From a virus: a stretch of DNA of 64,000 nucleotides. This document shows, piece after piece, positions 667-21,517 of the stretch. Position 1 is the stretch's first letter, and each line of letters begins with the position of its first letter. The notes under the pieces were generated by a model. The model was not told the DNA's origin. It made no database searches and saw nothing but the letters and a program-made list of their open reading frames with translations. The position numbers were made by a program, and so were the translations under genes. The stretch covers positions 1 through 64,000 of the IMG/VR virus record IMGVR_UViG_3300028840_002524. The stretch is one strand, 5' to 3'.

Positions 667-3600
667 ATGACACGCTGCCAAGCCTGCGGCCATCCTTCCG
701 TATCCCTCGCCTGTACCTCCTGCGGCACCCTTGCCGAAAACGAGAACGGCCCATCCCTGGGCGGCGGTTGGGCGCCCCATCCATACGATCCCGTCTCGGG
801 TATCTGCTTCGAGATGCACGGCAAGCACCTGCTTCCCGGGGATGAGGTGCGCGTCCAGCTCAAGAACGGCCGCAAGGCCACGGGATATGTGGACTACGCC
901 AGCACGAGCAAGACCCTCTACCTGTGCAAAGAGCATACGCGGCGCACGTGGAAGCGCGGGGTCTGGGTGCAATTCAAGGCCGAGGACATCGCCTCGGTGG
1001 ACATCGTGAAGCTATCCGAGGGCGAGGAGCGGCCGTACGCGCTAACGCTCAGGTCCGAATCCCCCGTGATTGCGGACTGGATCAAAGAGGCGCCCGAGCG
1101 CACCCCCGGCCCGCAGCACGCCCACGAGAACAACAGCCGGGCCGTGACGTTCCCCTTCCGAAAGGGCCTCGAAAGCAAGCTCTTCCGCCTCTTCGAGGAG
1201 CCCATCGGCCTCGGATGCCCCTATCTGTACCGCCTGGAGCCCGACGGTATCCTCATCGCCGACGTGACCGAGGAAACCATCACCCTGTGGAAAACCAACG
1301 ATCCCGGCCGATACCTGGGGTTCGATCCGAGAGAAAATATCCTCGATCACCTCCAAAAAATGGGGAAATCGGGGGTGGTTTTGTTGGGGCGCAAGGACTT
1401 ACGTTCGACTGTCGGTAGCGACAGTCGTTCAATTTTTGAAAATGAACCCACGCCCGCGAGCGTACGCCAGCGGCGCGGCGGCACCTACAGAACCGGCGGA
1501 AAGGCCGGTCCCGCCCGTACAGTCGTGCGCGGATTCCGTTTCCAGGTGGGTGGGAAGAAAGCACGCGGCCGACAGGCCAAGAACAAGGAGAAACAGGCGG
1601 CCGCAAAGCGCGTGGGGAAGCGCGGCCTCGCAAGGCGCATCTCCGCAGCCAAGAAGTGGCACAGGTCCTCAAGGGGCGCGGCCTATCATCGAGCTTTGGG
1701 CGATTACAACCGGGAAAGCATGAAACTGCGGTCCCAGGGGTTGTCAAAGCGCCTTTTCGAGAACGGTCTTGACTACTTTTTCGGAGATCCAGTGCTGTGG
1801 GCCCTCGATAGCCGGTCCCAGGGGGTCCGCACAGTCGCCGCTGGAGACCTGATTTCGGGTCACCTGTCAAGCACCCCTATGGGGGTGGGGGTGAATCCCC
1901 TGGGACCGACCGGGATACCAGATATGTCCACGCACGGGGAAAATTTGGCGTATGGGGAAAATTCTGCCCTGGGTGAGGAGGAGTGGAAGCCGTCGAGGCT
2001 CGGCGTCATCAAACCCGGAATGCGGGTGGTCTCCCGTGTCGGGTGGGTGGGCACGGTTCTCAAGGTGGTGGAAACGTCGAGCAACCCGTACGCGGTCGTG
2101 AAGTGGGACAAGACGGGATCGACGGGGCGGCACACGGTCACGACCCTGCATCCCGTGGAAGAGGATATGTCCACGCACGGGGAAAATTCCGCCCTTTCCG
2201 CGTCGCAGATCCGTGAGGGCGACAGTCCTGAGCTTCTACGGGCCATCGACGATTTCGCCAGCGGAATCACGCGCAAGAAGCCCGGCGGGATGTACGGGGA
2301 GTACATTCGTGCCCTTGGTATCGCCATGATGCGCGGCGGTTCGGGGCCCGATGCGAAAGCGTGGTGGCGGGCAGACCCCAAGGGATTCGACCCGAACTAC
2401 GCCTCGTGGCTCCAGGGCGAGATCGAGAAGCTGTTCAAGCAGCACGGCCAGCCCGTGAAGAAGTTCACCCCCGTGAGCGAGTCGGAAGACCGCTCTGGCG
2501 AGTCCGCAGGCCCGCGAAGCGAAAGCGTCGCCGAAGGGTCCGACGTGGTGAGCGCGGTGCAGGCAGCCATGGTGCCCACAAGGCCCAAGCGCATGCGGAA
2601 CCCGCGCACCGGGAAGATGGGCACCCTTCGCGTCCCGAGGGAACCCTCGTTCGTCGAGGACTTCCGGCCCGAGTTCCCCGAGAACCACGAGATGCAGCGC
2701 AAGCTGGCCGGGCACATCACCAAGGGGGCGTCCGAGTGGCGCGAGGAGAAAGCGCCCAGGGTTCGCCTCCCCTCCGGGTGGAGTGTGAAGCGATGGACCT
2801 ACTGGCGGCGGGACTTCCCGGAGACCCCCATGCGCAAGGAGTCGCAGGCCCTCCTCATCGCGTACCAGGGGAAGCCCGTGTTCACATTGGACTTCCAAGG
2901 CCGCAGCCCGCACGCCCTCGGCGTCGTGAAGGGGTCGAAGGTCGAGCGGCACTACGGCGTGGTGCAGGACAGCACCACGGAGTTCCTGGAAGACCTTCGG
3001 GACACCATCGAGGACGCCGGGTCCGTAGGCGAGGCCGTGGACAGCGTTACGAGCTTCACCCCCGTGAGTGAGTCCGTGAGCGAGGCGGTTGACTATGAGG
3101 ATCCGAAATATGAGGACCTTGTGAGCTTCTTGCAGTCGGCGGGTCGTGAGGCGCTCCAGTATCCCAAGGACAAATGGAGCAGCGTGTACTTCAAAAACGT
3201 GAAAGCGCATCACGTGGCGGAAATCGACTTCCCCGCCTTTAACGCGGCGAAGCGGGGGGTCCGGGGGATCACGAAGGATATGTACGACCACGCCCTCGCC
3301 GGGGCCTTCGAGAACCTGCAAGACGAGATCGAGGGGGCCAGCTCGTTCGAGTGGGGCGATAAGGAGGGGTTCATTGGCCGGGATCCCAAGACGCAGGATT
3401 ACCGAATGTTCCCTGTCGATGAGAGCGTGAGTGAATCCGTGAACGAGGCGGTAGGTCGGGACGCTTTCCACATCTGGCACATCACGGGCGCGAGCAACGC
3501 CAAGGCCATCCAGTCGGGCGGGTTCAAGCCCATGCCCACGAGCAAGGGACCGGGGGTATCGGTGGCCGTGCACCCGGCTGCGGCCCGGGGCCTTTTGCGG

Positions 3601-6600
3601 ACGGCGCAGCGCATGTTCTCGTTCCGGACCTTCGAGGACATGAAAGCGTGGTTCGTGGAGATGGGCGCGGACCCCGACGACCCCAAGTGGGGCAGGGTGG
3701 GGAACGAAGGTGATCCTGCGCGGGCGTACGTCAGTGCCATGTCCCTGTTTCACCCGGCCGTGGGTGGCAGCGCGACCAAGATCCCGAGGAATGAGTTCCT
3801 TTGGGCCGACATCGGGAAGAACCTGCATCGACAGGGGCCGCCGTTCGTGGCCGTCGAGGTCATCGGCAGTGACATGGACTTCGACGCCTATTCCGGATAC
3901 GAGGCCCTGTTCGACAAGCTTGCCGACGCCTACAAGCGGTTCTCGCCCAAGTCCATCGAGGCCGAGGTGTTCCTCGACGGCCGGGACATCGGGATCATGA
4001 ACGAGGTGTGGGACGAGCTGTACGTGGACATCAACAAGACCCCCGAGAAGATCCGCGAATCCCTCTCGGAAGGTGGGTGGTGGAACCCCAAGGAGATGAG
4101 CACCGAAGAGCTCCAGAAGGAACTCGCGGACATCGAGCGCGACTACGGGCGGAACCTCACCATGAGCGGCGGGGCCGTGGACCGTCGGCGCGGGACCATG
4201 ATCAACAAGATGCGCGAGATCAAGCGCGAATTGCAGAGCCGTGGGGTGCGGACGGAATCCGAGGTGATGGACATCGGTTTCCTCCAGGCCAAGGACCCCT
4301 ACACCGTCAAGTACGCCTGGAAACGGCGCGGGCCGATCAAGGTCGTGACGGTGGACGGGAAACGGGCCGCTGAGGAGTTTCTCGCCAGCGTGAAGCGGGA
4401 CGGCGGGAACGGGATGATCGTCAAGGGCGTGAAAGAGTCGGAAGGACCGCGAAGCGAGAGCGTTGTGGCGGAGGAGAAGTACGGAGTGTACCGGGTCTAT
4501 GTCCGCTACGGGAAGTACGGAGACAAGAAGCCGGTCCCCTACTATCTGGCAGGGACGCCATCCAGCATCCGCGAGCTGTTCGCCGATCCCGAGACGGCGG
4601 AGTACGACGAGGACGATAACAAGCTCATGCCGTACAAGATGGCGTGGGAACGCCCTGCTCGCTCTGAGGAGTCGGCCGTCACCGAAGCGAAGGAATACGT
4701 CCTTTGGGGGCTTCCCAAGGGCTCGAAGGATCAGATCGACGCCAAGGTGCTTCTCTCGAACGGGCGCAGCATGCGCGACATCGAGAAGGTCAAGAAGCTG
4801 GCCGGGCGCGACGGGTGGCACACGTTCCGGGTCCAGGTGATCGACCTCTCGAAGCCCTTCGACGCGGGTGCCGCGTTCGCCGGGGCCGTCGGCGAAGCCG
4901 TCAAGGGAATGAAGAACCTCACCTTCCTGCTCAACAAGCCCGAGGCGCCCATCGAGATGCGCGGCCGGTCGAAGAAGGGCTACATGGCCGTTTTCAAGGA
5001 GGGGAAGCACTACAAGGTGGCGCACGTGCCCACGGGCCTCGTGGCCTCCCCGCCCTTCCGCCTGCAAGCGGACGCGGCGGCTCTGGCCGTCCAGATCGAG
5101 GAGGAACTCGGGTCGAAACTCGACTTCCCGGCGGATCGGAAGCCCACCGATGTTCTCAAACGCATCGCGGACATCGTGATCGAGTACCGGATGGGCAAGC
5201 CCTTCGGCTACTGGGAGAGCGACGAGGACGGCGTGGCACCCCTGTTCGAGGGCCTTTTCGAGAGCTACAAGGCCGGGTGGATGAAGCTCACCCCCGCCGA
5301 GAAAAAGACCATGATCGAGGTGGTCAGGGCGCAGTACAAGACGCGCAGGAACGTCCCCTCGCAGCCCTACCGGGATGACTACGCGCCCATGCGCCGGGCG
5401 TTCGGCGTTCCCGCCGCCCTGGAACACAGCGGAGAGGAGCTGCCCGATCACTACTACGAAGCGTTCCGGTGGGCGTGGCAGATGGTCCAGCGCGGGGCCG
5501 ACCCCGACAAGTCCATCCCGGGAAAGATCGTGTACGAGGGCCTTTCCGAGAGCGGAGTTACGGTCAGGTACATGGGCGGTGAGCGCAGGCGTGGCCGGGG
5601 CGGCCTCCGTGGGCGCTCCATGGGCCGTGGCCCGGCCTCCTATCCGTTCGAGTTCGACCGGGGAATGGAAGATGTGGTATCCGAGCTGCGCACCTACCTC
5701 AAGGGGAAGCGGTTCAAGACCGATAACGTCGATTCGCTGACGTTCCTCGTGGGCCGTAAGGGCGCCACGGCCGCCGTCGCGTGGCTGAAAGACAAGGGGG
5801 TCCCCATCGACTACGACCTCCAGGATATGTCCGGGCCCGGCGAGGCCAAGCCTTTCGAGAGCATCCAGGAGGCCCTCCCTCGCGGGTTCAGCGTCGAGGT
5901 CGTGCAGTCGCGGAAGAACCCCGACTGGATCAAGGTGTCCGTGGAGGGCGACTTCCGGGGCGAGCGCGTGTACGGCGAGACGCAGCCCTTCCACATCGGG
6001 ATCAGCAAGCCCACCAGGAGACTCGTGGGCCAGATCACGCAGGCCGCGTTCAAGCGGGGCGAGTACGGGAAGGGCGTGCCCATGGGCCTCCAGGGCAAGC
6101 TCGAAGCCGCCGTCCTCGACGCCCTTGAGAAACACGCGGTCGAGAGGGGCATCTCGTACGCGCACCTCGAAGGGCTCGCCGAGGCCACCCGCAGGCCAAA
6201 GAAGCCCAGGGGCACCAAGACCAAGAAATTCGTGATGTACTTCCCCACCGAGCAGGACGCCATCGACTACGCCAGGGCGTTCGGCTTCAAGCCGGGGGAG
6301 ACGCGGGAGGAGAAACTCGGGTGGACCGTGGACGTGCGCCGGGGCGGCCCGGCCATGCGGTCCGATTTCATCTATACCGAGCCCAACCCTGACTTTGAGA
6401 CGTTCCTCCGGGCGTGGGTGGGCGAGCACCACGGACCGGCCATGGCCGACAGGGTGGCCGACGACTACCTGCGGATCTTCGCGGGGGCCAAGAAACCCAC
6501 GCCTTTCGAGGAGCGGCAGGCCGCCTCCATGAAGAAGCTCTACAAGGACCAGTACGGCAAGGAGCCGGGGCGCGTGAAAGCGCCCAAGGGGTCCGCAGCG

Positions 6601-9600
6601 GCGGCGCGGTTCAGGCTGCCAAGGGGCGTGCGCGTGCCCGGCGGAATGTACGCGGTGGGCCTCGCGGCCGGTCCGAACAAGGACTACCACCGGGGTTCCT
6701 GGAACGCCGAAGTGTACATCCCGCTCACGTTCGAGGTGGTGAGCACCACGGACGCGGCGGTGGACGCCGTGCACAGGTTCACAGGAAAGAACGATCTCGG
6801 CGGGAGCAACTTCTTCGAGCCGAACCGGCCCAACGGCACCCGGGCAGCCCGGAACGACCGGGCCGGGATCGTGTTCGACTCGGGCGGAATGGCTGTGGGA
6901 CGGGTCACCTACGGGGGCACCTTCATCCCCGCCGACTCACCCGGGTTCATGCGCGAGGGCCTCGAAGAGGCTGGAAAGGGACGGGCGCAGGTCATTCGAG
7001 GGATCCAGGCCGAACTCACCAAGATCATGAAGGACTTCGAGCGCGGGAAGTACAAGTCCCAGTACGACGATGTGGACGCCGTGGACGTGCACCTCCAGGT
7101 GCTCAACGGCAAGTGGAAGGTGTGGGTGGGCGAGGTTCCCGCCTCGGAGCGGCGGAAAGGGTACTGGACCTCCGAGGACTCCTGGTACTCCGTGAGCGAC
7201 GGCGAGTCGGCCAACGACCTAAAGGTCACGGCCGAGGAGATGTTCTACGACCTCGTGGGCAGGTACAGCGGCAAGTTCGAGGAGTCCGCGCCCATCGCCG
7301 AGTTCGAGCCCAGGCTCAAGCTCCCGGCCGATCCCACCGACCGGCCCAGAACCTACAAACCCAACAGAAGCGAGAAAAGCGTCATTCGCCGCACGGTGCG
7401 CGACGCCCTGGCGGTGACCTACTTCGACTCCGTGAATCAGGCCGTGTCCACCGTGGGCGACGCCATCGGGCGCCTCGGGTACCAGTTTGACGAACCCCTC
7501 TCGGGGCGGCAGCCCAAGCGGCCGGGCGAGACCGGCCGGGTGGCGCTGCATCTCCAGCGCATGACCAACGACCCCTACTGGCCCCTCGACCTGACCACAG
7601 GTCCGGTCCAGTTCACCTTTTACGTCATGCCGAACGGCAAGGTCGAGGCGGTGGGCTACTACACCGAGGGCGCCGAGGAGCGCCCCAACCCGGTCGTGGA
7701 GGGGATCAACGATCCTCACATCTTCAAGGCCGTATTCCTTGCGGGCGGCCCGGGTTCGGGCAAATCCTTCATTGCGAACCAGATGTTCAAGGGCACCGGG
7801 CTCAAGTTCCTGAACAGCGACCTCGCGTTTGAGCACCTGCTCACCAAGCGGGACCTCCCATTCGACATTAACCCGGACAACGAGGAGGTTTACGCCAAGC
7901 AGATGCAGGCCCGGGGCCGCGCCAAGGAGCTCACCAAGCTGCGGCGTCAGCTCTGGCTCGACGGGATGCTCGGGCTCGTGGTGGACGGAACGGGGAAAGA
8001 CTACGACAAGATCGCCAAGATGGCGACCAACCTCAAGGGCCTCGGGTACGACACGAGCATGGTGTTCGTGAACACGTCCCTCGACGTGGCCCACCAGCGG
8101 AACAAGGACCGGAAGCGGTCCGTCCCGGCCGACGTGGTGAACGATTCGTGGAGGCAGGTCCAGTCCAATATGGGCAAGTTCCAGGCGTTCTTCGGGAGCA
8201 AGAACTTCAAGATCGTGGACAACAGCAAGCCCCTCGACAAGCAGGGCATCCAGGAGCTGGGGGTGAACCTGCGCCGGGCGGCCATGAAGATGACCGACGG
8301 ACCCATCGAGAACCCCGTGGGGCAGGCCATCGTGAACACCCTGCACAAGACCGGCGGAAAAACCATGAGCGACATCGCCAACGCCCAGACCGAGGCGGCC
8401 GCGAGGATGCACGGGTACCTTGGCACGTTCATCGCCGAGTTCAGGGGCCTCGACAGCGCCGCCCTCCGGGTCCTTCTGGCCGAGACCACGGTGGACGCAG
8501 AGGTCCGGGAGATCATGGAACTTCGGAAAGACCTCGCCAAGGCGGAGGCCGAGGGCGACGAGACCAAGGTGGCGGGCATTCGGTACGCCCTCGGGATGGC
8601 CGAGGCCGCGCTGGAGGTCGCCCAGGGCGAGGAGGGCCTGGAAGCGGAGGAAGAGCTCCAGGACATGGGGGTTACGTTCTACAAGGAGGGACGGCCATCG
8701 ACGGTGATGGGGCCCTATCCGACGGTTTCGGCCGCCATGCTCGCGGCTGACCGGGTGTATCCCGTGGAAATAGGGGAACCGTGGGGAGATACCATCGACT
8801 CTCGCCAGCGGCGCGAGACGGTGGACGGCTATGTCGAGACCATGCCGTGGGTTACGGCCGAGGTCCTCAGCGTGGAGCCCGGTGTGGTCATGTACCACGA
8901 GGGTTCCGTGGGGGCGTCCCTCGACAGGGGCCTCCTCGAAGGGCTGCGCACCCGCGTGCGCCCCGTGGCCGACCCGTTCCTCCTCCCCGAGGGGGTCACG
9001 GCGGCACAGAAAGCGGTGGTAAAGGACCTCCGTAAGTTCTTCAAGAAAAAGAAGATAAAGGTCCGGTACAAGAGCCTCGCCACCCAGGGGCCGTGGGTCG
9101 AGGTCAGGGTGGACCAGGGGAAGGACTTCAAACCGTGGCTGAGTGGGGCAGAGCTCAAGAACTTTCCCGATGACATCCGGTCCACGGCCGTGCAGGTCCT
9201 CGGGGGCGCCCCGGGGCAACTCTCCTACGGGAACGCCCAGGGGAACATGATCGCCATGTTCCCGGAGCGGTGGTGGGACTTCCTCACCCGCATGGGCGAG
9301 AAGGTCACGCCGGTGGCCGAATCGGTGGGTGTGATGGACCTCTCGGGGGTGCAATCCATCCTCAAGGGGGCCGGGGGCAAGATCGAGCACGCGGCCGAGA
9401 AGCTAGCCGAGCTCTGGGTCAACGCGGCCGGGGCGGTCGCCCTGTTCATGAGTTACGCCCAGAAAGCCGGGGTTACCGTCGAAGTGGCCCGGAAAGCGGC
9501 GGGCGTGCTCTCGGGCATGACCGAGGCGGAGATCGAGGAGGCAATGCCCTCCTGGGGGTACACGGGCGGAACACCTGTGGGCGTGCCGCGCACAAGGGGG

Positions 9601-12600
9601 CGCAAGACGTTCCCGAGCGAGCGTCAGATCAAGATCGCGGCCAAGCAGGCCGGGACCTCGTACGAGGACGCCTGGGTGATCGCCCGAGACTACTTCGCGT
9701 ACGCCATCCCCATCAACCAGATCATCAAGACGCATCCGGGCATGGCACCGGCGGAGGTCACCGGGGTGGTGGCCTACCTCCTGACCAAGTTCGAGCAGCC
9801 CACCGGGCACCGCAGGGAGGGCCTCGTGCACCTCTCGGCGGCCATCACCGAGGCGTGGTACGACGTGGAGCAGCGGTCCATCTCGCGCTGGCGTGAAGCC
9901 ACGGAGCGGATCGGCAACATGCTCAAGTCCAAGCAGACGGTGTACGCGATCACGGCCGCCCTGGATTCGGCTGCCGAGGACGCGGTGAAGGAGGCCCAGA
10001 CCCTCCGAGGGGCCGAGAAGGAGGCATTCCTCGACCTGGGCGCCCGCTACATCGCAATCGCCCAGACCCTCAAGGCGTCGAAGCCCTACGCGGACGCCAT
10101 GAAGGAGCTCCTCCAGGTGGAGGTGGCTCTCGATTTCCTGGAGGGGATGCTCACCGGCGAGGCCAAGAACGCCTTTGAACACCTCATCAAGGACGGGTAC
10201 GACACGGACCGCTTCGTGCCGGTCGTGGCCGTCGGCGAGGAGGTCGGGCAGGCTGGCCTGGGCTGGACCGACGGGGAGGCGACCCTCTGGGAATCCTACG
10301 TTGTCCACCGGGGAATCCTGGAAAGCAAGGAGTACCGCGACAAGGACGGCGTGGAATACGAGCAGTTCTCCGAGGGCGGGGACGTGTACGTGTTCAACCG
10401 GATCTTCCCGGGCAGCATCCAGATTTTCACGCCCCTGGGCGAGGAGATCAGGCCCGACACCTGCGGCGTGTGCGGAAGCACCCCGGCGGGGGAGATGTAC
10501 CACGGGCCGAAGCTGTGCGCCGACTGCCACGCGGTGGTCTCCGAGAAGATCAAAGCCGAGAAGGAGCCCCGGGAAGGGCTGCACACGGCGACGGCCAAGA
10601 AGTGGTGCGAGGAGGCCGGGGTAGGCAAACGCCGCAAAAGCGGCAAAGATCGCATCGAGAACATGGCCGACATTCTTTCCAAGGCCAAGGGCAAGTACGC
10701 CGAGGCGGTGAGCGAGCGCAGCGTCGTGGAAGTCATCGCTCGGCAGGTGGACAAGGGCAGGATCACGGCCGAGGTCGCCGAGCGGCTTCTCACCGAGGCC
10801 GAGCTGCCCACGGACGTGCCCCGGCGCATCCTGCTCCCGACCGAGCCGGTGGACCACGACTTCGAGACGGCCGAGGCCATCGAGGACTGGTTCGAGGACT
10901 GCCGGGAGACGTTCAGGTTCGACAGCCGGGAAGCCATGCCCCACGGCGTGGCCTACTTCGGCGAGAACGAGGTCGTGGTCGTGGCCTACGACCATCTCCT
11001 CTCGGAGGACGCCCGCGACGCGGTGATCCAGGCGGCCGATGCGCAGCGCGTATGGGACGGGCTCATTCCCGTCGGCGATGCCAGCACGCCGTTCCACTCT
11101 CTCCTCGTGCGGGAGGGGGAGGCCGATCTCGTGCGGGCCCAGGGATTCACGACGGAGCACCGCACCGACCTCGAAAAGCGTAGGCGCGTGCGGTTCATCC
11201 AGGCCGGGGTCGAGAACTTCGTGCCCGGGTCCGTCAAGACGGCATACCTCTCGGACGGGACCGAGATCACCTTCGGGACGCCGACGGCCGAGAAGGACGC
11301 CCTCCTTGCCAAGGCGTGGGAGGAGTTCGACGGGACCGTCAGCGGGAAGGACCCCCTCGAAGTCGAGGAGGGGCTTTTCCGCCACTACACCGGCGCCCCG
11401 AGCGGCCTGGGCGAGGCCGCCGACGCCGCTCTCCAGAAGGTCACAGCCCTGGACAACGCCACCGTGAGCGAGGCCCCGGCTCTGTGGGCCCGGCTCCAGA
11501 CGGAGGGAACCCGGGTTCAGTCGATCATCTTCCCGGCCGACAAGAACGAGAAGGAGGCGACGGAGGGGGCGTCGGCCCTCGGGTACACGCCCGTGGAGGT
11601 GGGGAAGGTGGAGCGGAACGTCCGTGTCGGCGTGCGCGAGCCCGTGGTCGGGGCGCCCACCAGGGCGCTCTCATTCGGAGAGGGGATCACCGTGATCCTC
11701 CAGGGGGCGCAGGAAAACACGGTCCGAGTCTACGACGATCCGTACGAACCGGAACGCCTCCTCCGGGAGATCGCCCTCCACAACCTCGTGGAAGGGGCCG
11801 ACAAGGTAGCCCCCATGGGGCCGCGATCCTGGGCCCTGGGCTATCCCGACAACAGCGCCTCCCTCCTCGTGTACTTCCCGAGGCACGGGATCGCCCGGAT
11901 GTTCACCCGGGAGGACCTGGGCATCCGGTTCGAGGGGGAACTCAGCGAGCAGGTCACGGGCATGCCGGTGGCGCCGCCCGAGACCGAGGCCGAGTCCATG
12001 GACCAGAAGCTCGACAGCATCGTGCGCAAGCTCGTGCTGAACGGCAGCCTCGACGCCCTCCAGGATGTGGCGTTCGACGATGACACGGGGTCCATTTACC
12101 TGTTCTTCTCGGCCGCCATCACGAGGGAGGAAGCCGAGGACATCACCCAGGACCTCGGCAACGAGTACCAGCAAACGCGGCTCGTGGCGTCGCCCGATCA
12201 GTCCCTCGACGGCGAGGTGGGAGAGTCCGATTGGTGGGTTGTGTTCGTGCCGGGCGAGGACGAAACGGGCGCCCCGGGCGAGCCCGACCCCACGCGGTGG
12301 GGCGCCACCAAGGTGCCCGAGCAACAACCGCAGGGCCTCTCCCAGTTCATGGACAAGGACGCGGTGCAGTCCATCGCCAAGGGTGTCAGCCTGGACAAGG
12401 CCATCGACGCCCTCACAACCGAGAGCCTCGCCGAGGTGGACTTCAATCCCCTCTCGTTCGCGCTGGCGTTCGCCGCGCACCACGGCCTCGACGAAACGTC
12501 CCTCGCCTCCTCTCCTCTCGCGCCGGGGACCGTGTTCCTGACGGTGAAGAACGAGGCGGGCACAATGAAGCGCGTTGACTTCTCAGCCCCGGGAGTGGGC

Positions 12601-12726
12601 GACGGGGTGAACGTGGTGGTCACCGATGCGGCCAACGGCCAGAAGGAAACGGTGGGCCACTTCAAGAACCCCACCCTGACCGAACTCCTTGGAAAGCTCG
12701 GAGACAACCCGGCATGGAAAGCGTAA
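667..12726 (+). CDS. Giant (4019 aa) multi-module putative internal head/cargo polyprotein
   Basis: Uninterrupted 12-kb ORF with high-GC codon bias. Contains Zn ribbons, an SH3-like module, an ART-like module (HIT...GF...GVS...EAEVF) and a P-loop kinase (GGPGSGKS), separated by Glu-Ser/Ala/Gly linkers. The true start codon is uncertain. Confidence 0.8.
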   Translation: MTRCQACGHPSVSLACTSCGTLAENENGPSLGGGWAPHPYDPVSGICFEMHGKHLLPGDEVRVQLKNGRKATGYVDYASTSKTLYLCKEHTRRTWKRGVWVQFKAEDIASVDIVKLSEGEERPYALTLRSESPVIADWIKEAPERTPGPQHAHENNSRAVTFPFRKGLESKLFRLFEEPIGLGCPYLYRLEPDGILIADVTEETITLWKTNDPGRYLGFDPRENILDHLQKMGKSGVVLLGRKDLRSTVGSDSRSIFENEPTPASVRQRRGGTYRTGGKAGPARTVVRGFRFQVGGKKARGRQAKNKEKQAAAKRVGKRGLARRISAAKKWHRSSRGAAYHRALGDYNRESMKLRSQGLSKRLFENGLDYFFGDPVLWALDSRSQGVRTVAAGDLISGHLSSTPMGVGVNPLGPTGIPDMSTHGENLAYGENSALGEEEWKPSRLGVIKPGMRVVSRVGWVGTVLKVVETSSNPYAVVKWDKTGSTGRHTVTTLHPVEEDMSTHGENSALSASQIREGDSPELLRAIDDFASGITRKKPGGMYGEYIRALGIAMMRGGSGPDAKAWWRADPKGFDPNYASWLQGEIEKLFKQHGQPVKKFTPVSESEDRSGESAGPRSESVAEGSDVVSAVQAAMVPTRPKRMRNPRTGKMGTLRVPREPSFVEDFRPEFPENHEMQRKLAGHITKGASEWREEKAPRVRLPSGWSVKRWTYWRRDFPETPMRKESQALLIAYQGKPVFTLDFQGRSPHALGVVKGSKVERHYGVVQDSTTEFLEDLRDTIEDAGSVGEAVDSVTSFTPVSESVSEAVDYEDPKYEDLVSFLQSAGREALQYPKDKWSSVYFKNVKAHHVAEIDFPAFNAAKRGVRGITKDMYDHALAGAFENLQDEIEGASSFEWGDKEGFIGRDPKTQDYRMFPVDESVSESVNEAVGRDAFHIWHITGASNAKAIQSGGFKPMPTSKGPGVSVAVHPAAARGLLRTAQRMFSFRTFEDMKAWFVEMGADPDDPKWGRVGNEGDPARAYVSAMSLFHPAVGGSATKIPRNEFLWADIGKNLHRQGPPFVAVEVIGSDMDFDAYSGYEALFDKLADAYKRFSPKSIEAEVFLDGRDIGIMNEVWDELYVDINKTPEKIRESLSEGGWWNPKEMSTEELQKELADIERDYGRNLTMSGGAVDRRRGTMINKMREIKRELQSRGVRTESEVMDIGFLQAKDPYTVKYAWKRRGPIKVVTVDGKRAAEEFLASVKRDGGNGMIVKGVKESEGPRSESVVAEEKYGVYRVYVRYGKYGDKKPVPYYLAGTPSSIRELFADPETAEYDEDDNKLMPYKMAWERPARSEESAVTEAKEYVLWGLPKGSKDQIDAKVLLSNGRSMRDIEKVKKLAGRDGWHTFRVQVIDLSKPFDAGAAFAGAVGEAVKGMKNLTFLLNKPEAPIEMRGRSKKGYMAVFKEGKHYKVAHVPTGLVASPPFRLQADAAALAVQIEEELGSKLDFPADRKPTDVLKRIADIVIEYRMGKPFGYWESDEDGVAPLFEGLFESYKAGWMKLTPAEKKTMIEVVRAQYKTRRNVPSQPYRDDYAPMRRAFGVPAALEHSGEELPDHYYEAFRWAWQMVQRGADPDKSIPGKIVYEGLSESGVTVRYMGGERRRGRGGLRGRSMGRGPASYPFEFDRGMEDVVSELRTYLKGKRFKTDNVDSLTFLVGRKGATAAVAWLKDKGVPIDYDLQDMSGPGEAKPFESIQEALPRGFSVEVVQSRKNPDWIKVSVEGDFRGERVYGETQPFHIGISKPTRRLVGQITQAAFKRGEYGKGVPMGLQGKLEAAVLDALEKHAVERGISYAHLEGLAEATRRPKKPRGTKTKKFVMYFPTEQDAIDYARAFGFKPGETREEKLGWTVDVRRGGPAMRSDFIYTEPNPDFETFLRAWVGEHHGPAMADRVADDYLRIFAGAKKPTPFEERQAASMKKLYKDQYGKEPGRVKAPKGSAAAARFRLPRGVRVPGGMYAVGLAAGPNKDYHRGSWNAEVYIPLTFEVVSTTDAAVDAVHRFTGKNDLGGSNFFEPNRPNGTRAARNDRAGIVFDSGGMAVGRVTYGGTFIPADSPGFMREGLEEAGKGRAQVIRGIQAELTKIMKDFERGKYKSQYDDVDAVDVHLQVLNGKWKVWVGEVPASERRKGYWTSEDSWYSVSDGESANDLKVTAEEMFYDLVGRYSGKFEESAPIAEFEPRLKLPADPTDRPRTYKPNRSEKSVIRRTVRDALAVTYFDSVNQAVSTVGDAIGRLGYQFDEPLSGRQPKRPGETGRVALHLQRMTNDPYWPLDLTTGPVQFTFYVMPNGKVEAVGYYTEGAEERPNPVVEGINDPHIFKAVFLAGGPGSGKSFIANQMFKGTGLKFLNSDLAFEHLLTKRDLPFDINPDNEEVYAKQMQARGRAKELTKLRRQLWLDGMLGLVVDGTGKDYDKIAKMATNLKGLGYDTSMVFVNTSLDVAHQRNKDRKRSVPADVVNDSWRQVQSNMGKFQAFFGSKNFKIVDNSKPLDKQGIQELGVNLRRAAMKMTDGPIENPVGQAIVNTLHKTGGKTMSDIANAQTEAAARMHGYLGTFIAEFRGLDSAALRVLLAETTVDAEVREIMELRKDLAKAEAEGDETKVAGIRYALGMAEAALEVAQGEEGLEAEEELQDMGVTFYKEGRPSTVMGPYPTVSAAMLAADRVYPVEIGEPWGDTIDSRQRRETVDGYVETMPWVTAEVLSVEPGVVMYHEGSVGASLDRGLLEGLRTRVRPVADPFLLPEGVTAAQKAVVKDLRKFFKKKKIKVRYKSLATQGPWVEVRVDQGKDFKPWLSGAELKNFPDDIRSTAVQVLGGAPGQLSYGNAQGNMIAMFPERWWDFLTRMGEKVTPVAESVGVMDLSGVQSILKGAGGKIEHAAEKLAELWVNAAGAVALFMSYAQKAGVTVEVARKAAGVLSGMTEAEIEEAMPSWGYTGGTPVGVPRTRGRKTFPSERQIKIAAKQAGTSYEDAWVIARDYFAYAIPINQIIKTHPGMAPAEVTGVVAYLLTKFEQPTGHRREGLVHLSAAITEAWYDVEQRSISRWREATERIGNMLKSKQTVYAITAALDSAAEDAVKEAQTLRGAEKEAFLDLGARYIAIAQTLKASKPYADAMKELLQVEVALDFLEGMLTGEAKNAFEHLIKDGYDTDRFVPVVAVGEEVGQAGLGWTDGEATLWESYVVHRGILESKEYRDKDGVEYEQFSEGGDVYVFNRIFPGSIQIFTPLGEEIRPDTCGVCGSTPAGEMYHGPKLCADCHAVVSEKIKAEKEPREGLHTATAKKWCEEAGVGKRRKSGKDRIENMADILSKAKGKYAEAVSERSVVEVIARQVDKGRITAEVAERLLTEAELPTDVPRRILLPTEPVDHDFETAEAIEDWFEDCRETFRFDSREAMPHGVAYFGENEVVVVAYDHLLSEDARDAVIQAADAQRVWDGLIPVGDASTPFHSLLVREGEADLVRAQGFTTEHRTDLEKRRRVRFIQAGVENFVPGSVKTAYLSDGTEITFGTPTAEKDALLAKAWEEFDGTVSGKDPLEVEEGLFRHYTGAPSGLGEAADAALQKVTALDNATVSEAPALWARLQTEGTRVQSIIFPADKNEKEATEGASALGYTPVEVGKVERNVRVGVREPVVGAPTRALSFGEGITVILQGAQENTVRVYDDPYEPERLLREIALHNLVEGADKVAPMGPRSWALGYPDNSASLLVYFPRHGIARMFTREDLGIRFEGELSEQVTGMPVAPPETEAESMDQKLDSIVRKLVLNGSLDALQDVAFDDDTGSIYLFFSAAITREEAEDITQDLGNEYQQTRLVASPDQSLDGEVGESDWWVVFVPGEDETGAPGEPDPTRWGATKVPEQQPQGLSQFMDKDAVQSIAKGVSLDKAIDALTTESLAEVDFNPLSFALAFAAHHGLDETSLASSPLAPGTVFLTVKNEAGTMKRVDFSAPGVGDGVNVVVTDAANGQKETVGHFKNPTLTELLGKLGDNPAWKA
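1408..1425 (-). promoter_or_regulatory. Reverse-orientation copy of the 18-bp palindrome with its AAAAATTGAACG flank, inside the giant ORF
   Basis: ACTGTCGGTAGCGACAGT followed by CGTTCAATTTTT. Confidence 0.6.
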
Positions 12727-15367: not shown

Positions 15368-18300
15368 GTGCCTGGAAAAGCCACTCTTGCGTTTCGTCTT
15401 TACTGCTCGCTTGCCGCTTCACCGAAGCCCATTAGCGAGTTTACCCTCCTCAACAACACGGACCTTCTGACCGCCCTTCACGAGGCGGGTGCTCACCTCG
15501 AAGCGGATCTCTTCGACGCCCTGAGCGAGGACAGCAAAAGGTGGGTCCGGGACGTGGTTCTCCACATGGAGCCGTTCGACCTCAAGGAGGTCGATCTCAC
15601 CGGCAAAGTGGACTTCGACGAGTTCTGGTCCTTCCCGACCGACGAGGCGGCGCGGAGTTTCGCGTCGGGCCTCCCGGCCACGGTGGACAAGGCTGTTCGA
15701 AACAACCTCGTAGGATTCCGTGGGGTCCTGGATCAGCCCATCGAGCAGCGGGCGATCAAGGCGGGCGGCCAACTGTCCTCCTATCTGGAGTGGCACAGCG
15801 CCGTCAACGTGCAGGACACGCCTGCCCGTCCGATGGAAGCCGACATGAACTTCCCGGCGCGGCTGTGCGCCCGGTACGACCCCCGCGACGTGCGAACGCT
15901 CGCGGCCGAATACCCGGCCGATCACGTGATGCCGCAGCGCGAGAACTTCGCCAAGTTCGTCGAGGCCCTCGGCGCCATCGAGCCCCACGACGACTTCGAC
16001 CCCGTGCTGGAGCGGTTCGTCAAGGTGGCGTGGCCCTCCGAACTCATGGACAACCTCAAGGCCGCGATCCCTTCCACGGGCCTGAACTTCGAGGACCTAC
16101 GGGAGCAGGTGAGCTTCGTGGCGCGGCACCTACCGCGCACCCTCCTGTCCCTGAACCCTTCTGACCTTTCCTCCCACCTGGGCGAGCATCTCGCCCACGA
16201 GCTCGTGGAGTTCATCCACTGGGCGTTCCCGGGTGTTTCCGAAGAGGACCCCGACCCCGAGGGCGACGCCGACGCCGATGGCGAGCAGGAAGCCGACGCC
16301 GAGGGGGATGCGGAAAAGGCCAAGATGGGTGAGTCCGTGCAGATCGAGCCGAACTACGCCCTCGTGTACGTGAGCGGACGCGACGACGTGGCGAAGCTCG
16401 TGGGCCCCGCCATGGCCTCGAAGGAAATGAAAAACTGGACGGACGTGGACGGCCTGTCGAATTGGCTCATGTACGGCCACCGCATCCGCAACGTAGGCGT
16501 CATGCGGCCGAAAGACCTCGGCGGATACGCCATCTACATCCCCAAGAACCAGCTCTCCGACCTCAAGATGGTGTTCGGGGAACTCGGGATCGCGGAATCG
16601 AGCGTCCGGGTAGTGACCGCCGACGACGCCGCAAGCGTGGCGGAAGGGGGCGTCCGAGACACCCTCGGCCGGTGGTACCGCGTGATCAAAGAAGAGCTCT
16701 ACAACACCCTCATGGTCTCCGAAGCCGAGTACGCCCTGGCGTGGCTCGCGCACAAGGCGGGATTCCGCCCGGAGCCGTCCCTCGGCGAGTTCGGCCTCTC
16801 TTCGCAGCAGGCCGCCACCTCCCGCCGGGCAGCCGAGCGCATGCACGACAAGTACCCGGGTTTCGCCGGGGAAAGCGCGGGCGCCGTCAAGAGGCTCGCC
16901 AAGGTGCGGGCCCCTGCCCTCCAGGAGTACAAGCCCAGGAAGGGCAAACACACCCCGAAGCAGCGCAAGCACGGCGGCGGGAACTACGTGTTCCCTCCGA
17001 CCGAGAAGGACCCTTACGGCCGCTACCCCATGACCAACGCGGCCCAGGCCCGCAACGCCCTCGCCCGTGCCGGGGCCTGTGACGAGCAGTCCTCCTGGAT
17101 GAAAATCCGGGGAATCTCCTGCGCGGACCTCAAGAAGAAGGTCGCCAACGCCGCCAAGAAGGACTTCCCGTCCATCGAGGTAGGCGAGCGCGTGGGAGAA
17201 GCGTTCCTCGACAAAAACTGGGTCTCGTACCTGATCCCGGTGGGCGAAACCCCGGCCCTTCACAAGCAACTCCGCGCCATCAACAACAGCCAGATCGTTC
17301 CGAAGCTGGCAAAGAAAGCCCACATCCGCCCCGACATGATTTTCGGGGTAGAGACGCCGGTGGGGTTCCGCATCTTCGTGTACTCCGGGAACAAGGGCGG
17401 CGTCTTGGACATCTTGCAGCAGGCCGGGATCATGGACGCCTACGAAGGGCCATGCTCCCCTCCCGTCCAGGAAGCATATCCCGAGGGCGACACACCTCTG
17501 ACCTTCCTGTTCCGGGGCGTCTCGGCAGACCACGCCCGTGAGTGGGCCGAGGAATGGCAGGGCCTCGGGTACATCACCTCCTTCAACGTCTCTTCCTCCG
17601 GGAACGACACCACCGTCAGTATGATGGCCGGGAACCCGGGGCAGGTCCGGATCGCGGGGCTCATGCTCGGGAACTACATCGAGCCCGACGATCCCGCCTA
17701 CGGCACCCCTTCCGAGGGCGTAGAAGAGAGCCGGTCCTCCGCGCTCACGGCAGTGACCAACTACGCGGGGGTGATCAGCCGCACGGACGGAGAAGGGTAC
17801 GCCGACTTCGCCCACGCGATGGCCGACCACTACCTCTCCGGTGCCGCTCTTCCCGACCCGAAGCTCTGGGCACGGAAGTACGGCGACTTCGACCCCATCT
17901 GGGCCGACCTCGTGGGCGAGAAGGTCCGCGAGATCCTTTCGCAGCACGGCATCAACGTGCGCGAGAGCGTTTCCGAAGCCGTCATGAAGTCCATCGCCTA
18001 CATCGACCTCGACAAGAAGGAGGCGGATCGTCTTCGGGAAGCCTACGACAAGGCGAACCCGTGGGACCCCTCCTGGGGCGAGCAGTACACGATGGAATCC
18101 GACATCGTGGACCTCCTGAACAAGAACGGTCGCTTCGGCGACATGCGGGCGGAGTACGGCAAGGGCAGCGACCGCTACGCAATGCGGCTTTGGGTCGATC
18201 CGAGCCACGTGCGGCAGCTCTCGCGCCTCCTCTCGGCGGCCTACGGGCTGCGCGTGAAGGAAAGCACCGCTCTGGTGTTCGACTCCGAAGCGGTTCTCCA

Positions 18301-21300: not shown

Positions 21301-21517
21301 CAAGAGCGACGTGGAAATGCCGGGGGAGATCACGGGACCGACCATGGCGGGGCAGGAGAAGCCGCGCCTCATCGGTGGGCAGACCGTTCGGGTCAAAGGC
21401 GTGTACTTCGGAGAGGACGGGAAACTCCGGGTGAACCTGGACGAACCCATCGAGATGACGGTGTACGCCGACGACATGATGACCGCCATCCAGAGCGGCC
21501 AGCTCGTGGCCGACTGA
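15368..21517 (+). CDS. Second large (2049 aa) multi-module putative head core/cargo polyprotein
   Basis: GGAGG RBS before GTG. Modules are separated by VRESVSEA, VGEA and VAEG-type linkers. Contains acidic and Pro-rich stretches plus CPHC and CPFC pairs, and shares a module with the 4019-aa protein. Confidence 0.8.
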   Translation: MPGKATLAFRLYCSLAASPKPISEFTLLNNTDLLTALHEAGAHLEADLFDALSEDSKRWVRDVVLHMEPFDLKEVDLTGKVDFDEFWSFPTDEAARSFASGLPATVDKAVRNNLVGFRGVLDQPIEQRAIKAGGQLSSYLEWHSAVNVQDTPARPMEADMNFPARLCARYDPRDVRTLAAEYPADHVMPQRENFAKFVEALGAIEPHDDFDPVLERFVKVAWPSELMDNLKAAIPSTGLNFEDLREQVSFVARHLPRTLLSLNPSDLSSHLGEHLAHELVEFIHWAFPGVSEEDPDPEGDADADGEQEADAEGDAEKAKMGESVQIEPNYALVYVSGRDDVAKLVGPAMASKEMKNWTDVDGLSNWLMYGHRIRNVGVMRPKDLGGYAIYIPKNQLSDLKMVFGELGIAESSVRVVTADDAASVAEGGVRDTLGRWYRVIKEELYNTLMVSEAEYALAWLAHKAGFRPEPSLGEFGLSSQQAATSRRAAERMHDKYPGFAGESAGAVKRLAKVRAPALQEYKPRKGKHTPKQRKHGGGNYVFPPTEKDPYGRYPMTNAAQARNALARAGACDEQSSWMKIRGISCADLKKKVANAAKKDFPSIEVGERVGEAFLDKNWVSYLIPVGETPALHKQLRAINNSQIVPKLAKKAHIRPDMIFGVETPVGFRIFVYSGNKGGVLDILQQAGIMDAYEGPCSPPVQEAYPEGDTPLTFLFRGVSADHAREWAEEWQGLGYITSFNVSSSGNDTTVSMMAGNPGQVRIAGLMLGNYIEPDDPAYGTPSEGVEESRSSALTAVTNYAGVISRTDGEGYADFAHAMADHYLSGAALPDPKLWARKYGDFDPIWADLVGEKVREILSQHGINVRESVSEAVMKSIAYIDLDKKEADRLREAYDKANPWDPSWGEQYTMESDIVDLLNKNGRFGDMRAEYGKGSDRYAMRLWVDPSHVRQLSRLLSAAYGLRVKESTALVFDSEAVLQSIAEGVFEHLNRPVSVSVDAIGGGILRGFVEPTAALELFAEALTHLGEGTEVEIDKNESIFRAKGLPEGLGWDTPGDLYPADGPEALGEDSLFAPTKVKPSGETDNPSNRAAASAKKVMSKNGPKKMAKDPKEVGRGEKGDKAGGKKPKTIPRDASGGPGTSGESDPSADYTKATVGVKGSLFTVLGKKKGEKGPQAKGGEAKGKVVTPGVAIKSFECTCPHCSNSVKENVLKRFAPALLEQDPVAGGGATAVSPANDRPGNIEAPPGAASTPPKSEPAKEPEKPTEADPTKRQDDEEEGGPTQGLVCPFCGKEIPRDVLKGMMGELLAQLAAQLQQGSTKPEEPEEEKPEDEEEEEEETPEEEPAPEPEPEQQPAQAPAGETPPAAPMAPAAPGKPKESIEERGRTDFVQQFMGFDITYYNARQGFEANSAEELQDAIEARYPGSFRGYVLDAVRSLIVKVPVKQADKFDQMLRQQLLKVKSPSVISSSVQTKDGEPVVETEQEPGEPVIEAGGSGMGRFRQGAPVRGTDSLSVGDLLVNVSKQFGAVNVARVTDVGGIGGVVTAIFVDPNNPSKKRMPSDREFAIHDFDTSDYFFAEGVESEEPIAVGEIGVDNDGIPAGVRVRVLDSHRGKAKVDAGGRVIDVAAEDVLVYPSGSTIEECLAALERGESLGAVAMRRLTSRTKAVRLAALGETTEGSSGKYLSMYFPNVEACHKAKAAVGALGSKITDGTEVSFAVEPLNGESTRLRTIAEQLGGAVLRTITPPGPVAEQLDIDTDSTDLGEVNNLFQGALADIKGARDLLIKAQTGDMARAVALLKSMGAKEKVMNALQGVADSIEEHGTNLKETLGALDKAHDVFSKAYPDAPNGAPEEEPAPENGEMPPAEEPAPENGNGEPMPVEEPPVEAPPAEEQPPPAVSPRPVESMNKILGEMRRSAHWPLIRYALSEDDFQTFGNFMRSISPKITAHEVSAVFETIQEVTEMDMALESGIVHGAHFLAKSDVEMPGEITGPTMAGQEKPRLIGGQTVRVKGVYFGEDGKLRVNLDEPIEMTVYADDMMTAIQSGQLVAD

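Follow-up and report, generated by a model that had tools for sequence, protein, structure and literature searches.

Linker-coding direct repeats at module junctions of a giant, presumed polyprotein gene in an uncultured myovirus

In polymorphic toxin loci such as Rhs and CdiA, a conserved motif marks the point at which variable C-terminal toxin cassettes are swapped, and in Rhs this border motif is also a proteolytic site. Each of these proteins has one variable tip, with orphan cassettes downstream and secretion by the bacterium. The internal proteins of phage T4 are small, diverse and packed in the head; they are ejected into the host and are unrelated to each other except for a short conserved targeting/processing sequence (PMC3012670). 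The T4 protease gp21 cleaves L/I-x-E sites on the C-terminal side of Glu, Glu-Ala bonds among them (PMC9026906; PMC5694885). Polyvalent proteins, encoded by invading elements (phages and conjugative elements), are very large and composed of many modules whose domains also occur solo; the proteins are mosaic between relatives and are predicted to accompany the DNA, and release of their domains via embedded peptidase domains has been proposed (Iyer et al., 2017; PMC5512222). The text of that paper contains no linker code or junction mechanism, and the word "linker" is absent from it (PMC5512222).

We analyzed a 64-kb stretch of DNA (the window) from an uncultured myovirus with a T4-type head, which carries a giant modular gene directly upstream of its head and tail genes (MCP, protease, sheath and baseplate). 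A ParB-like gene adjoins the giant gene as a separate gene. The features discussed below are as follows:

667..12726, + strand: giant gene P0001, 4019 aa, a chain of unrelated modules
1921..1945, + strand: repeat 1, copy a (DMSTHGEN), closing the N-terminal block that is conserved across both relatives
1966..2163, + strand: SH3-like (Tudor/KOW-like) cassette, aa 434-499, between the 25-mers of repeat 1
2164..2188, + strand: repeat 1, copy b (DMSTHGEN); peptide identity continues through SAL to 2196
2188..2463, + strand: module aa 508-599, with a core (aa 524-599) paralogous to the second polyprotein
2464..2483, + strand: repeat 2, copy a (FTPVSES), which includes V-S-E followed by S
2509..2528, + strand: repeat 3, copy a (GPRSESV), leading into a strict linker motif at 2521 (ESVAE, then G)
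2521..3015, + strand: module aa 619-783, homologous to portions of P0003 and P0012
3055..3074, + strand: repeat 2, copy b (FTPVSES), with ESVSE-A after it
3439..4071, + strand: module aa 925-1135, widely distributed, both as a stand-alone protein and in fusions with other domains
4255..4443, + strand: small module aa 1197-1259, common to L002 (61%) and many other proteins
4444..4463, + strand: repeat 3, copy b (GPRSESV)
4684..4881, + strand: module aa 1340-1405, whose copy in the relative lies in its other polyprotein gene
5248..6972, + strand: five more strict linker motifs, EGLFES (5248), EGLSES (5536), ESIQEA (5857), EGLAEA (6169) and EGLEEA (6955)
15368..21517, + strand: second polyprotein of 2049 aa, in which the linker motif also occurs (EGVEES, ESVSEA)
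24227..26515, + strand: prohead protease, Pfam Peptidase_S77 PF03420 (T4 gp21 family), E 1.1e-14, 54.8 bits against a cut-off of 27
26556..28019, + strand: major capsid protein (MCP), Pfam Gp23 PF07068 (T4 type), E 3.4e-25

Repeat pairs and the modules around them

An earlier note on this DNA had described three pairs of direct repeats at module junctions of the giant gene and proposed that linker-coding DNA serves as microhomology for in-frame shuffling of cassettes. Pattern search and translation bore out the pairs themselves, in position, frame and linker-coding content. Repeat 1, GATATGTCCACGCACGGGGAAAATT, is a 25-nt sequence that is exact at 1921 and 2164; repeat 2, TTCACCCCCGTGAG(C/T)GAGTC, occurs at 2464 and 3055 (19/20), and repeat 3, GG(C/A)CCGCGAAGCGA(A/G)AGCGT, at 2509 and 4444 (18/20). 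None of these patterns has a third site anywhere in the 64-kb window, where 100 shuffles gave an expectation of 0. The pairs encode DMSTHGEN, FTPVSES and GPRSESV, respectively, with all copies in frame 1 of the ORF at 667-12726 and with copy-to-copy spacings (243, 591 and 1935 nt) that are each divisible by 3. A further linker copy, VSESV(S/N)EA, is found at 3064 and 3427, with a rare AGT codon in common.

Across the giant gene, two pairs matched at 19/20 or better, as against 0.1 expected from 30 codon-shuffled versions, and nine matched at 18/20 or better, as against 1.4 +/- 1.2; eight of these nine near-match pairs have both copies in the same frame. The best match of any 20-nt window in the codon-shuffled gene was 19/20, and a 25-nt exact match never arose. 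An 18/20 pair such as repeat 3 is within chance when taken alone, and gains weight from the peptide and the rare CGA codon (0.05) that its copies have in common. In repeat 1, 8/8 codons are identical, including rare GAT (0.20), GAA (0.21) and AAT (0.10), an agreement that two independent draws would give with a chance of ~0.012; its copies match at 25/25 positions within the genome, compared with 20/24 to the L002 ortholog. These common rare codons indicate that the 25-nt repeat was copied as DNA. An 8149-nt Logan contig covers 1408-9556 with zero differences, which rules out an assembly artefact of this record as the source of the repeats. For five of the six repeat copies, the nearest independently defined homology boundary is no more than 1 aa away (P ~0.015), a coincidence that is only moderately significant because homology boundaries are dense in the region.

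The 25-mers bracket an SH3-like module, as had been claimed: its AF2 model (pLDDT 82) has four strands in a small barrel, and the top Foldseek matches are the PcrA/UvrD Tudor domain, KOW and CarD, with TM 0.6-0.7 and rmsd 1.4-2.4 over 53-56 residues at an E of only ~0.02. Homologs of this cassette are free-standing proteins of 56-76 aa. Copy a of repeat 1 extends to 1972 as DMSTHGEN-[LAYGEN]-SAL, with an internal 18-nt tandem duplication. Farther downstream, the core aa 524-599 matches the second polyprotein at aa 793-866 (29% identity, E 6e-5), in an alignment that stops 1 aa short of FTPVSES; the homology of module aa 1197-1259 likewise stops 1 aa before copy b of repeat 3. The homologs of module aa 619-783 in P0003 and P0012 have different neighbours, and KEGLAE-G precedes the P0012 copy. 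For module aa 925-1135 (model pLDDT 91), matches to ADP-ribosyltransferase-like folds are weak: the top rows in VIA-align (RhsP2, diphtheria toxin, TreTu, PARP16, pertussis S1 and DarT) are mostly ART toxins at a Z of only 5.6-3.8, and Foldseek gave E >0.4. The alignment of this module has invariant H, S and E-x-E columns.

The sole Pfam match in the 4019 aa is a Zeta_toxin/AAA_33 kinase (aa 2354-2520), and no internal paralogs were detected by self-BLASTP. Separate sets of homologs match aa 441-503, 524-783, 930-1135, 1197-1259 and 2340-2512. At the N-terminus, a Cys4 zinc-ribbon-like stretch precedes a conserved 418-aa block.

Module content in relatives

Two relatives only were available in the collections, with DNA for one of them. 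They are mosaic, with common blocks that are 52-68% identical and non-homologous stretches between. P0017/L002 and P0042 diverge directly after DMS[TP]HGE and directly before GPRSESV; the DMS[TP]HGE divergence point is common to all relatives compared (2-3), each of which has a second S[TP]HGE linker farther on. Linkers are where homology breaks, among other places at 1921-1963 and immediately ahead of 4444 (~4443). Of the 52 block boundaries, which are not all independent, 48% lie within 12 aa of phi-x-E-[SAG], as against 23 +/- 6% of random positions. Searches of the relative's complete genome recovered neither the SH3-like cassette nor aa 500-1198. The two phages have MCPs that are 93% identical, which indicates that the polyprotein evolves far faster than the MCP.

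Module aa 1340-1405 has its counterpart at 27108-27290 of L002, in the relative's other polyprotein gene, with the join exactly at ...VREGLGE-A, so that the junction of this moved module lies within an ...E-x-x-x-E-A linker. Module content thus differs among relatives with breakpoints at repeats or linkers, as the earlier note had anticipated. The comparison supports the view that modules have been gained, lost and moved in frame at linkers, and it places their in-frame exchange at the linkers, whether the partners are related phages, a free-standing gene and the polyprotein, or the two polyprotein genes.

The linker motif and the origin of the repeats

The strict motif E[SG][LVI]xE[SAG] occurs 10 times in the giant protein (0.18 expected), six times in the L002 giant (0.12 expected), which words it differently (ESLGEG), and twice in the second polyprotein (0.12 expected). 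The looser motif [LIVF]xE[SA] occurs 28 times in the giant protein, compared with 11.3 +/- 3.4 expected. Strict motifs are limited to aa 619-2097, and within the conserved C-terminal 1000 aa the relatives have only some of the looser sites in common. The codons of the motif vary (AGC and TCC for Ser, from both Ser codon families, and GAA and GAG), which indicates that it is kept as a peptide; since most copies use different codons, there is no general DNA homology among the linkers.

The phi-x-E sites of the giant protein, read from its sequence, coincide with module borders, and a gene for an S77 prohead protease lies 11.5 kb downstream of the giant gene. The motif fits the L/I-x-E specificity of gp21, and the linkers look like cut sites of the phage's own S77 protease; such a presumed protease site, which the earlier note had missed, would be the likelier reason for linker recurrence. 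DMSTHGEN is not itself an L/I-x-E site, and such sites lie a few residues off.

We consider it probable that the repeats are linker-coding copies in a hypervariable polyprotein gene, combining insertion scars with a motif conserved as peptide, and that the linkers are cut by the head protease. About two dozen unrelated modules follow one another in this gene, and many of the linkers have E-[S/G]-[L/V/I]-x-E with S, A or G after it. The giant protein would be made as a single chain, loaded into the prohead and cleaved at the linkers by the S77 protease into separate small proteins, which would then be ejected together with the DNA. This life as a packaged, cut chain is likely because the linkers match gp21-type sites and such a protease is encoded downstream. 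Insertion of a cassette would duplicate a linker, most clearly at the 25-nt DMSTHGEN repeat flanking the SH3-like cassette, so that the repeats would chiefly reflect insertion scars and motif conservation, and may themselves then promote additional in-frame deletions or swaps. The repeats are better viewed as footprints or by-products: that they cause shuffling is the least secure part of the claim, and selection alone would be expected to place breaks in linkers, whatever the recombination mechanism. We suggest only tentatively that the linker is a dual-use code, both a prohead-protease cut site at the peptide level and, as DNA or frame punctuation, a standard junction through which any cassette could enter, in frame, the polyprotein genes of all phages that use this code, in which case the 25-nt repeat would be a fresh insertion footprint.

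It seems rather unlikely that the short DNA identities are themselves the recombination substrates, with the array growing and shrinking at exact repeats on short timescales. Recombination between the copies of a pair would remove whole modules, since every repeat is in frame, and 25 nt is sufficient in length for short-homology recombination; however, the exact runs extend over 14 nt in repeat 2 and 11 nt in repeat 3, and exact 13-14-nt runs are present at non-linker places of the giant gene too. An 18-nt tandem duplication within the same linker in both phages suggests slippage, and the breakpoints relative to L002 match the repeats at 1921-1963 and ~4443, whereas the varied codons of most linker motifs and the one junction resolved at nucleotide level (L002 27100), where the common DNA is just GA(A/G) GC(G/C), argue against this reading. 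What stands of the earlier proposal is the in-frame gain, loss and movement of modules at linkers; its microhomology component sits poorly with the few bases common at that junction. No deletion junctions at the repeats were found in contigs of the two runs holding this DNA, a check that says little, since contigs drop rare variants and both runs look like one data set.

Convergent selection for a protease-site or flexible-linker peptide only, without any historical or mechanistic tie to recombination, is less probable still. It would account for a strongly enriched motif family with varied codons that recurs in a different gene and, reworded, in relatives. Repeat 1, however, has no cut-site motif and is nevertheless identical over its whole length with three rare codons, rare CGA and AGT codons are common to the copies of other pairs, and the module content of relatives differs at exactly these places. 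An origin of the repeats as chance matches in a GC-rich, codon-biased gene, or as an assembly artefact there, is very improbable in view of the shuffling results, the identical 7-8-aa peptides and the independent Logan contig, even though a single 18/20 match falls within the null and exact 13-14-mers occur elsewhere in the gene.

If the repeats are indeed linker copies in a cleaved polyprotein gene, the phage would carry, and rapidly re-assort, a large kit of injected proteins in this gene: a single promoter, packaging event and protease would free many independent effectors, and new effectors would slot in at standard junctions. Were the dual-use code also true, simple recombination would suffice to re-equip the injected protein arsenal. 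The extreme mosaicism of giant phage proteins would be explained, and a simple rule (cut at the linker) would split such genes into testable units, a potentially rich source of unknown anti-host or anti-defence modules.

Relation to known systems

The window encodes the same protease and MCP families as T4, in which IPI, IPII, IPIII and Alt are processed by gp21; Alt is an ADP-ribosyltransferase, and module aa 925-1135 has a weak ART-like fold. In T4 each of these proteins has its own gene and an N-terminal targeting peptide of 10-20 aa, whereas here about two dozen modules are joined by internal linkers in one 4019-aa frame. Inspection of the N-terminus of the giant protein showed no obvious T4-like CTS.

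The giant protein resembles polyvalent proteins in having many unrelated domains that are also found solo or recombined, and in being encoded by a phage near its head genes. None of the polyvalent hallmark domains (zincin-like MPTase, DdrB-like ParB, SNF2 and methylases) was found by Pfam in the 4019 aa. The presumed cutter here is the prohead protease, encoded by a gene of its own, which would act on a linker code that recurs along the chain, in contrast to the embedded peptidases of polyvalent proteins.

The analogy with Rhs and CdiA lies in the two uses of one short motif, as a cut site and as a recombination border. Unlike those loci, the giant gene has many internal cassettes and no orphan array, and it combines a different protease and motif with a phage-head setting.

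Repeats and linker motif in the giant gene

All three pairs of short repeats that the earlier note placed at linker-coding junctions of the giant gene were found exactly where it reported them, each in frame 1 of that gene. The features concerned are listed below; residue numbers refer to the giant protein P0001 unless another protein is named.

667-12726 (+): giant gene, encoding P0001 (4019 aa)
1921 and 2164 (+): repeat 1, copies a and b, exact 25-mer GATATGTCCACGCACGGGGAAAATT, encoding DMSTHGEN
1966-2163 (+): putative SH3-like cassette between the two copies of repeat 1 (aa 434-499)
2464 and 3055 (+): repeat 2, TTCACCCCCGTGAG(C/T)GAGTC, encoding FTPVSES
2509 and 4444 (+): repeat 3, copies a and b, GG(C/A)CCGCGAAGCGA(A/G)AGCGT, encoding GPRSESV
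15368-21517 (+): second putative polyprotein gene (2049 aa)
24227-26515: prohead protease
26556-28019: major capsid protein

Each repeat pattern occurs at two sites only across the 64-kb window, even when two to three mismatches are tolerated, and at none in shuffled sequences. Measured against 30 codon-shuffled versions of the giant gene, pairs matching at 19/20 or better number two (0.1 expected) and those at 18/20 or better number nine (1.4 ± 1.2 expected), eight of the nine sharing the same frame. It is clear that chance did not produce the 25-mer or the 19/20 pair; the 18/20 pair is convincing only jointly with its common peptide and common rare codon. An 8149-nt Logan contig spans 1408-9556 with zero differences, and the repeats are therefore no quirk of one assembly. 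The 25-mer had no match in IMG/VR beyond the source record, which was possibly masked.

Many of the linkers share the motif E-[S/G]-[L/V/I]-x-E-[S/A/G], with 10 occurrences in the giant protein against the 0.18 that residue shuffling would give, six in the related giant protein of another phage (0.12 expected) and two in the 2049-aa second polyprotein (0.12 expected). For the looser form [LIVF]-x-E-[SA] the count was 28 against 11.3 ± 3.4 expected. FTPVSE-S, and the ESVAE-G that follows GPRS, belong to the same family. Differing codons encode the motif copies, with serine drawn from both of its codon families and Glu from both of its codons, which argues that the linker family is kept as peptide and not as DNA.

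Some linker copies nevertheless seem, from their codons, to derive from copying at the DNA level. Codon choice in the two DMSTHGEN copies is identical at 8/8 positions, including GAT (relative use 0.20), GAA (0.21) and AAT (0.10), an agreement that two independent codon draws would reach with a probability of ~0.012. With copy a's 18-nt tandem duplication (GGGGAAAATT ... GGGGAAAATT) left out, their likeness extends across SAL. Motif convergence is no explanation here, because DMSTHGEN itself is not an L/I-x-E site. Within the window the two copies agree at all 25 nt, as against 20/24 for the orthologous linker in a related phage; the duplication therefore postdates the split between the phages, unless later homogenisation made the copies alike. 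The GPRSESV copies have the rare CGA codon (0.05) in common, and the VSESV(S/N)EA pair at 3064/3427 the rare AGT codon (0.04). Tandem duplication of a 243-nt unit was ruled out, as what follows one 25-mer is unrelated to what follows the other.

We also observed 18-nt tandem duplications within the same DMS[TP]HGE linker of both phages (1939-1963 in the window; 11219-11254 in L002, the locus of the related phage). The units read TCC ACG CAC GGG GAA AAT / TTG GCG TAT GGG GAA AAT in the window and TCT CCG CAC GGG GAA TTT / ...ATT in the relative, and an A/T-rich patch after GGGG persists in this linker despite a genome of 65% G+C. Slippage or some nucleotide-level function may account for the duplication and the patch. 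The heptamer at GGGGAAAATT is out of phase for a canonical -1 frameshift site, and this possibility was ruled out.

A putative polyprotein of the phage head

The window covers the opening 64 kb of a virus record in IMG/VR that is 116 kb long, and nearly all genes in the window are encoded on the + strand. The giant gene is followed downstream by a ParB-like gene and the second huge ORF (15368-21517), then by genes for the head maturation protease, major capsid protein, tail fibre, sheath, tape measure and baseplate. The protease belongs to Peptidase_S77, the T4 gp21 family (Pfam, E 1.1e-14), and the capsid protein to the Gp23 family (Pfam), with less than 30% identity to that of any cultured phage. 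T4 gp21 cleaves after Glu in L/I-X-E, a Glu-Ala bond being the first site determined (PMC9026906), and its relatives in giant phages also cleave after Glu (PMC5694885). Because an S77 protease is encoded in the same head gene cluster as the motif-bearing protein, we infer, as the simplest reading, that the giant protein is a polyprotein loaded into the prohead and cut into modules. The chain would enter the prohead, and the protease would then cut the linkers and free the modules. The conserved N-terminal 418 aa (667-1920), which have a zinc-ribbon-like CxxC...CxxC start and a very basic Arg/Lys-rich segment at aa about 265-340, are a possible anchor for the chain, either inside the prohead or on DNA.

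The sole recognisable domain in the giant protein is a Zeta-toxin/AAA_33-type kinase (aa 2354-2520). An exhaustive HMMER search with aa 419-1266 gave matches that form discrete, non-overlapping blocks.

Modules of the giant protein with homologs found by HMMER
aa 441-503: free-standing proteins of 56-76 aa (P0018, P0020, P0022, P0036, P0039)
aa 524-783 and 619-783: parts of P0003 and P0012
aa 930-1135: some 25 clusters, solo or fused, e.g., to LigD domains in P0007
aa 1197-1259: a small module in many architectures

Pfam gave no function for the solo homologs. Self-BLASTP detected no paralogous modules within the giant gene, so all beads of the string differ. The module between the 25-mers is confidently modelled as a small beta-barrel (pLDDT 82) with the PcrA/UvrD Tudor domain, KOW domains and CarD as best structural neighbours (TM 0.6-0.7, weak E-values), and "SH3-like" is a fair description of the predicted fold. 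For aa 925-1135 (3439-4071), which gave a model of very good quality (pLDDT 91), Foldseek returned nothing at E<0.001, and most of the weak neighbours by structure are ADP-ribosyltransferase toxins (Z 5.6-3.8); this module is a possible candidate for an Alt-like injected ADP-ribosyltransferase, a lead and not a finding.

Neighbouring genes have comparable features. The second polyprotein has zero Pfam or PHROG matches, yet carries the same linker motif (EGVEES, ESVSEA), and its alignment with the L002 homolog is a mosaic of 42-66% identity with gaps. A 570-aa ORF (12714-14426) starts 13 nt before the stop of the giant gene and is conserved in the relative only at aa 19-150 (69%); it may be another variable-cargo gene. 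A capsid stretch of roughly 70-100 aa (aa 173-250 / 331-428) is matched at 35-41% in four further genes of the relative, including one upstream of the giant gene in L002 (G001:C1:45929-46222 in the relative's genome), as a beta-rich module reused in several proteins.

Mosaicism and cassette movement among relatives

Relatives of the giant gene are few. Among cultured phages there was no match by megablast with the gene or by tblastn with aa 419-1266, and a search for loci related to the region of the repeats found none. Alignments of the N- and C-terminal blocks across IMG/VR and JGI metagenomes recovered one other phage only, and the full-length protein search matched only the kinase domain of P0002. 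A homolog search of longer proteins with the N-terminal piece found none, and a further search gave P0042. Two relatives were thus compared: P0017, encoded on L002 in a complete 131-kb phage genome with terminal repeats, and P0042, available as protein only.

Gene order near the giant gene is conserved between the window and L002, and the capsid proteins are 93% identical (26556-28019 versus G001:C1:16222-17676), which makes the capsid N-terminus useless as a test of site conservation. The giant genes share blocks of 52-68% identity (aa 1-433, 1199-1259, 2219-2606, 2621-2761 and 2956-4019), with a further block (aa 2607-2655) sited elsewhere in the relative, and between these blocks are stretches without any similarity. 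By these comparisons, the polyprotein evolves far faster than the structural genes. The SH3-like cassette was not found in the relative's complete genome. A search there with aa 500-1198 was also empty, an answer that proves little, though a capsid protein query was answered in that genome.

The boundaries of similarity fall close to linkers. All three giant proteins are collinear up to DMS[TP]HGE (aa 425-433 in the window, aa 419 in P0017 and aa 412 in P0042) and then diverge completely, and another linker of the S[TP]HGE type occurs later in each (VESTHGEVSEAL in P0042, TPHGESLGEA in P0017). At the DNA level, the first shared block ends at 1964, one base beyond the extended repeat 1a, and the second at 4427-4443, immediately before repeat 3b. 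Across three pairwise comparisons, 48% of 52 boundaries lie within 12 aa of phi-x-E-[SAG], compared with 23 ± 6% of random positions, a statistic that is indicative only since the boundaries are partly redundant. Several fall exactly on Glu (ESLGE-G, LLGE-G, AVSE-A). In the region of the repeats, some independent comparison places a homology boundary no more than 1 aa from five of the six repeat copies (P about 0.015).

One cassette (aa 1340-1405; 4684-4881) has, to judge from a three-sequence alignment, moved between genes. It is 51% identical, and 77% at the DNA level, to L002 27108-27290 in the relative's homolog of the second polyprotein. Upstream of ...NGI(N/A)VRE(S/G)(V/L)(S/G)E-A the relative's gene tracks the window's second polyprotein, and downstream of this linker (KEY(A/V)LW...) it tracks the window's giant gene; the switch point lies within the linker motif, where the shared nucleotides are merely GA(A/G) GC(G/C). 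A weaker paralogy between aa 524-599 and second polyprotein aa 793-866 (29%, E 6e-5) has its limits 1 aa before FTPVSES in one direction of comparison and at VRE-SVSEA in the second polyprotein.

In the relative, a TAG, an AGAGAGG resembling a Shine-Dalgarno site and a new ATG at L002:18035-18055 divide the giant gene into genes of 2678 and 872 aa, and at this point the window protein (about 10150-10175) reads straight through a ...LEGMLTGE-A linker. The split is apparently a gene fission or fusion at a linker, and the same borders therefore serve as gene borders.

Origin of the repeats and known systems

The earlier note's placement of the repeats at module junctions is borne out: such junctions are the places at which modules have been acquired, dropped or moved without loss of frame, and the relatives vary in module presence with breakpoints at the repeats or linkers. 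Comparison of the sequences gives good support for the exchange of cassettes bounded by linkers, also across two genes. The note had further proposed that the linker DNA acts as microhomology in an expandable array; the exchange of cassettes at junctions stands, and the role of DNA identity is hypothetical. Most linkers have no DNA identity in common, and the single resolved junction has only a few common bases, both of which count against microhomology. Selection against breaks within folded modules would by itself leave the surviving breakpoints in linkers. Two sequencing runs contain the window DNA, as Logan contigs only; their contig sets coincide, and they are apparently a single data set entered twice. 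No contig joint falls at the repeats, and at contig level this absence of deletion junctions is no evidence; the joints listed have sides of 21-24 letters and were treated as cross-matches from other organisms.

Since linkers mostly lack DNA identity, the resolved junction is short and selection suffices, the repeats would mainly be footprints of cassette insertions that duplicated the linker, together with peptide-level conservation of a probable cut site. A cassette would insert, the linker would be duplicated, and the repeat would remain. Once present, the 25-nt repeat may well favour deletion of the putative SH3-like cassette.

Our search of the available literature found no description of a polyprotein punctuated by prohead protease sites. 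The closest functional model is provided by T4's internal proteins together with Alt, unrelated small proteins that are united only by a short targeting/processing sequence and are packed into the head, trimmed by gp21 and injected (PMC3012670, PMC9026906); in the window, the same idea would take the form of a single fused reading frame. The general phenomenon, giant proteins that are mosaics of domains also existing solo and that peptidases release, is covered by the polyvalent proteins (PMC5512222). That work names embedded peptidase domains, whereas a repeated linker code and a junction rule are absent from it, and none of its hub domains was detected in the giant protein. The window gene can be classed as a variant within a known framework, that of head-packed, protease-processed phage proteins and polyvalent proteins.
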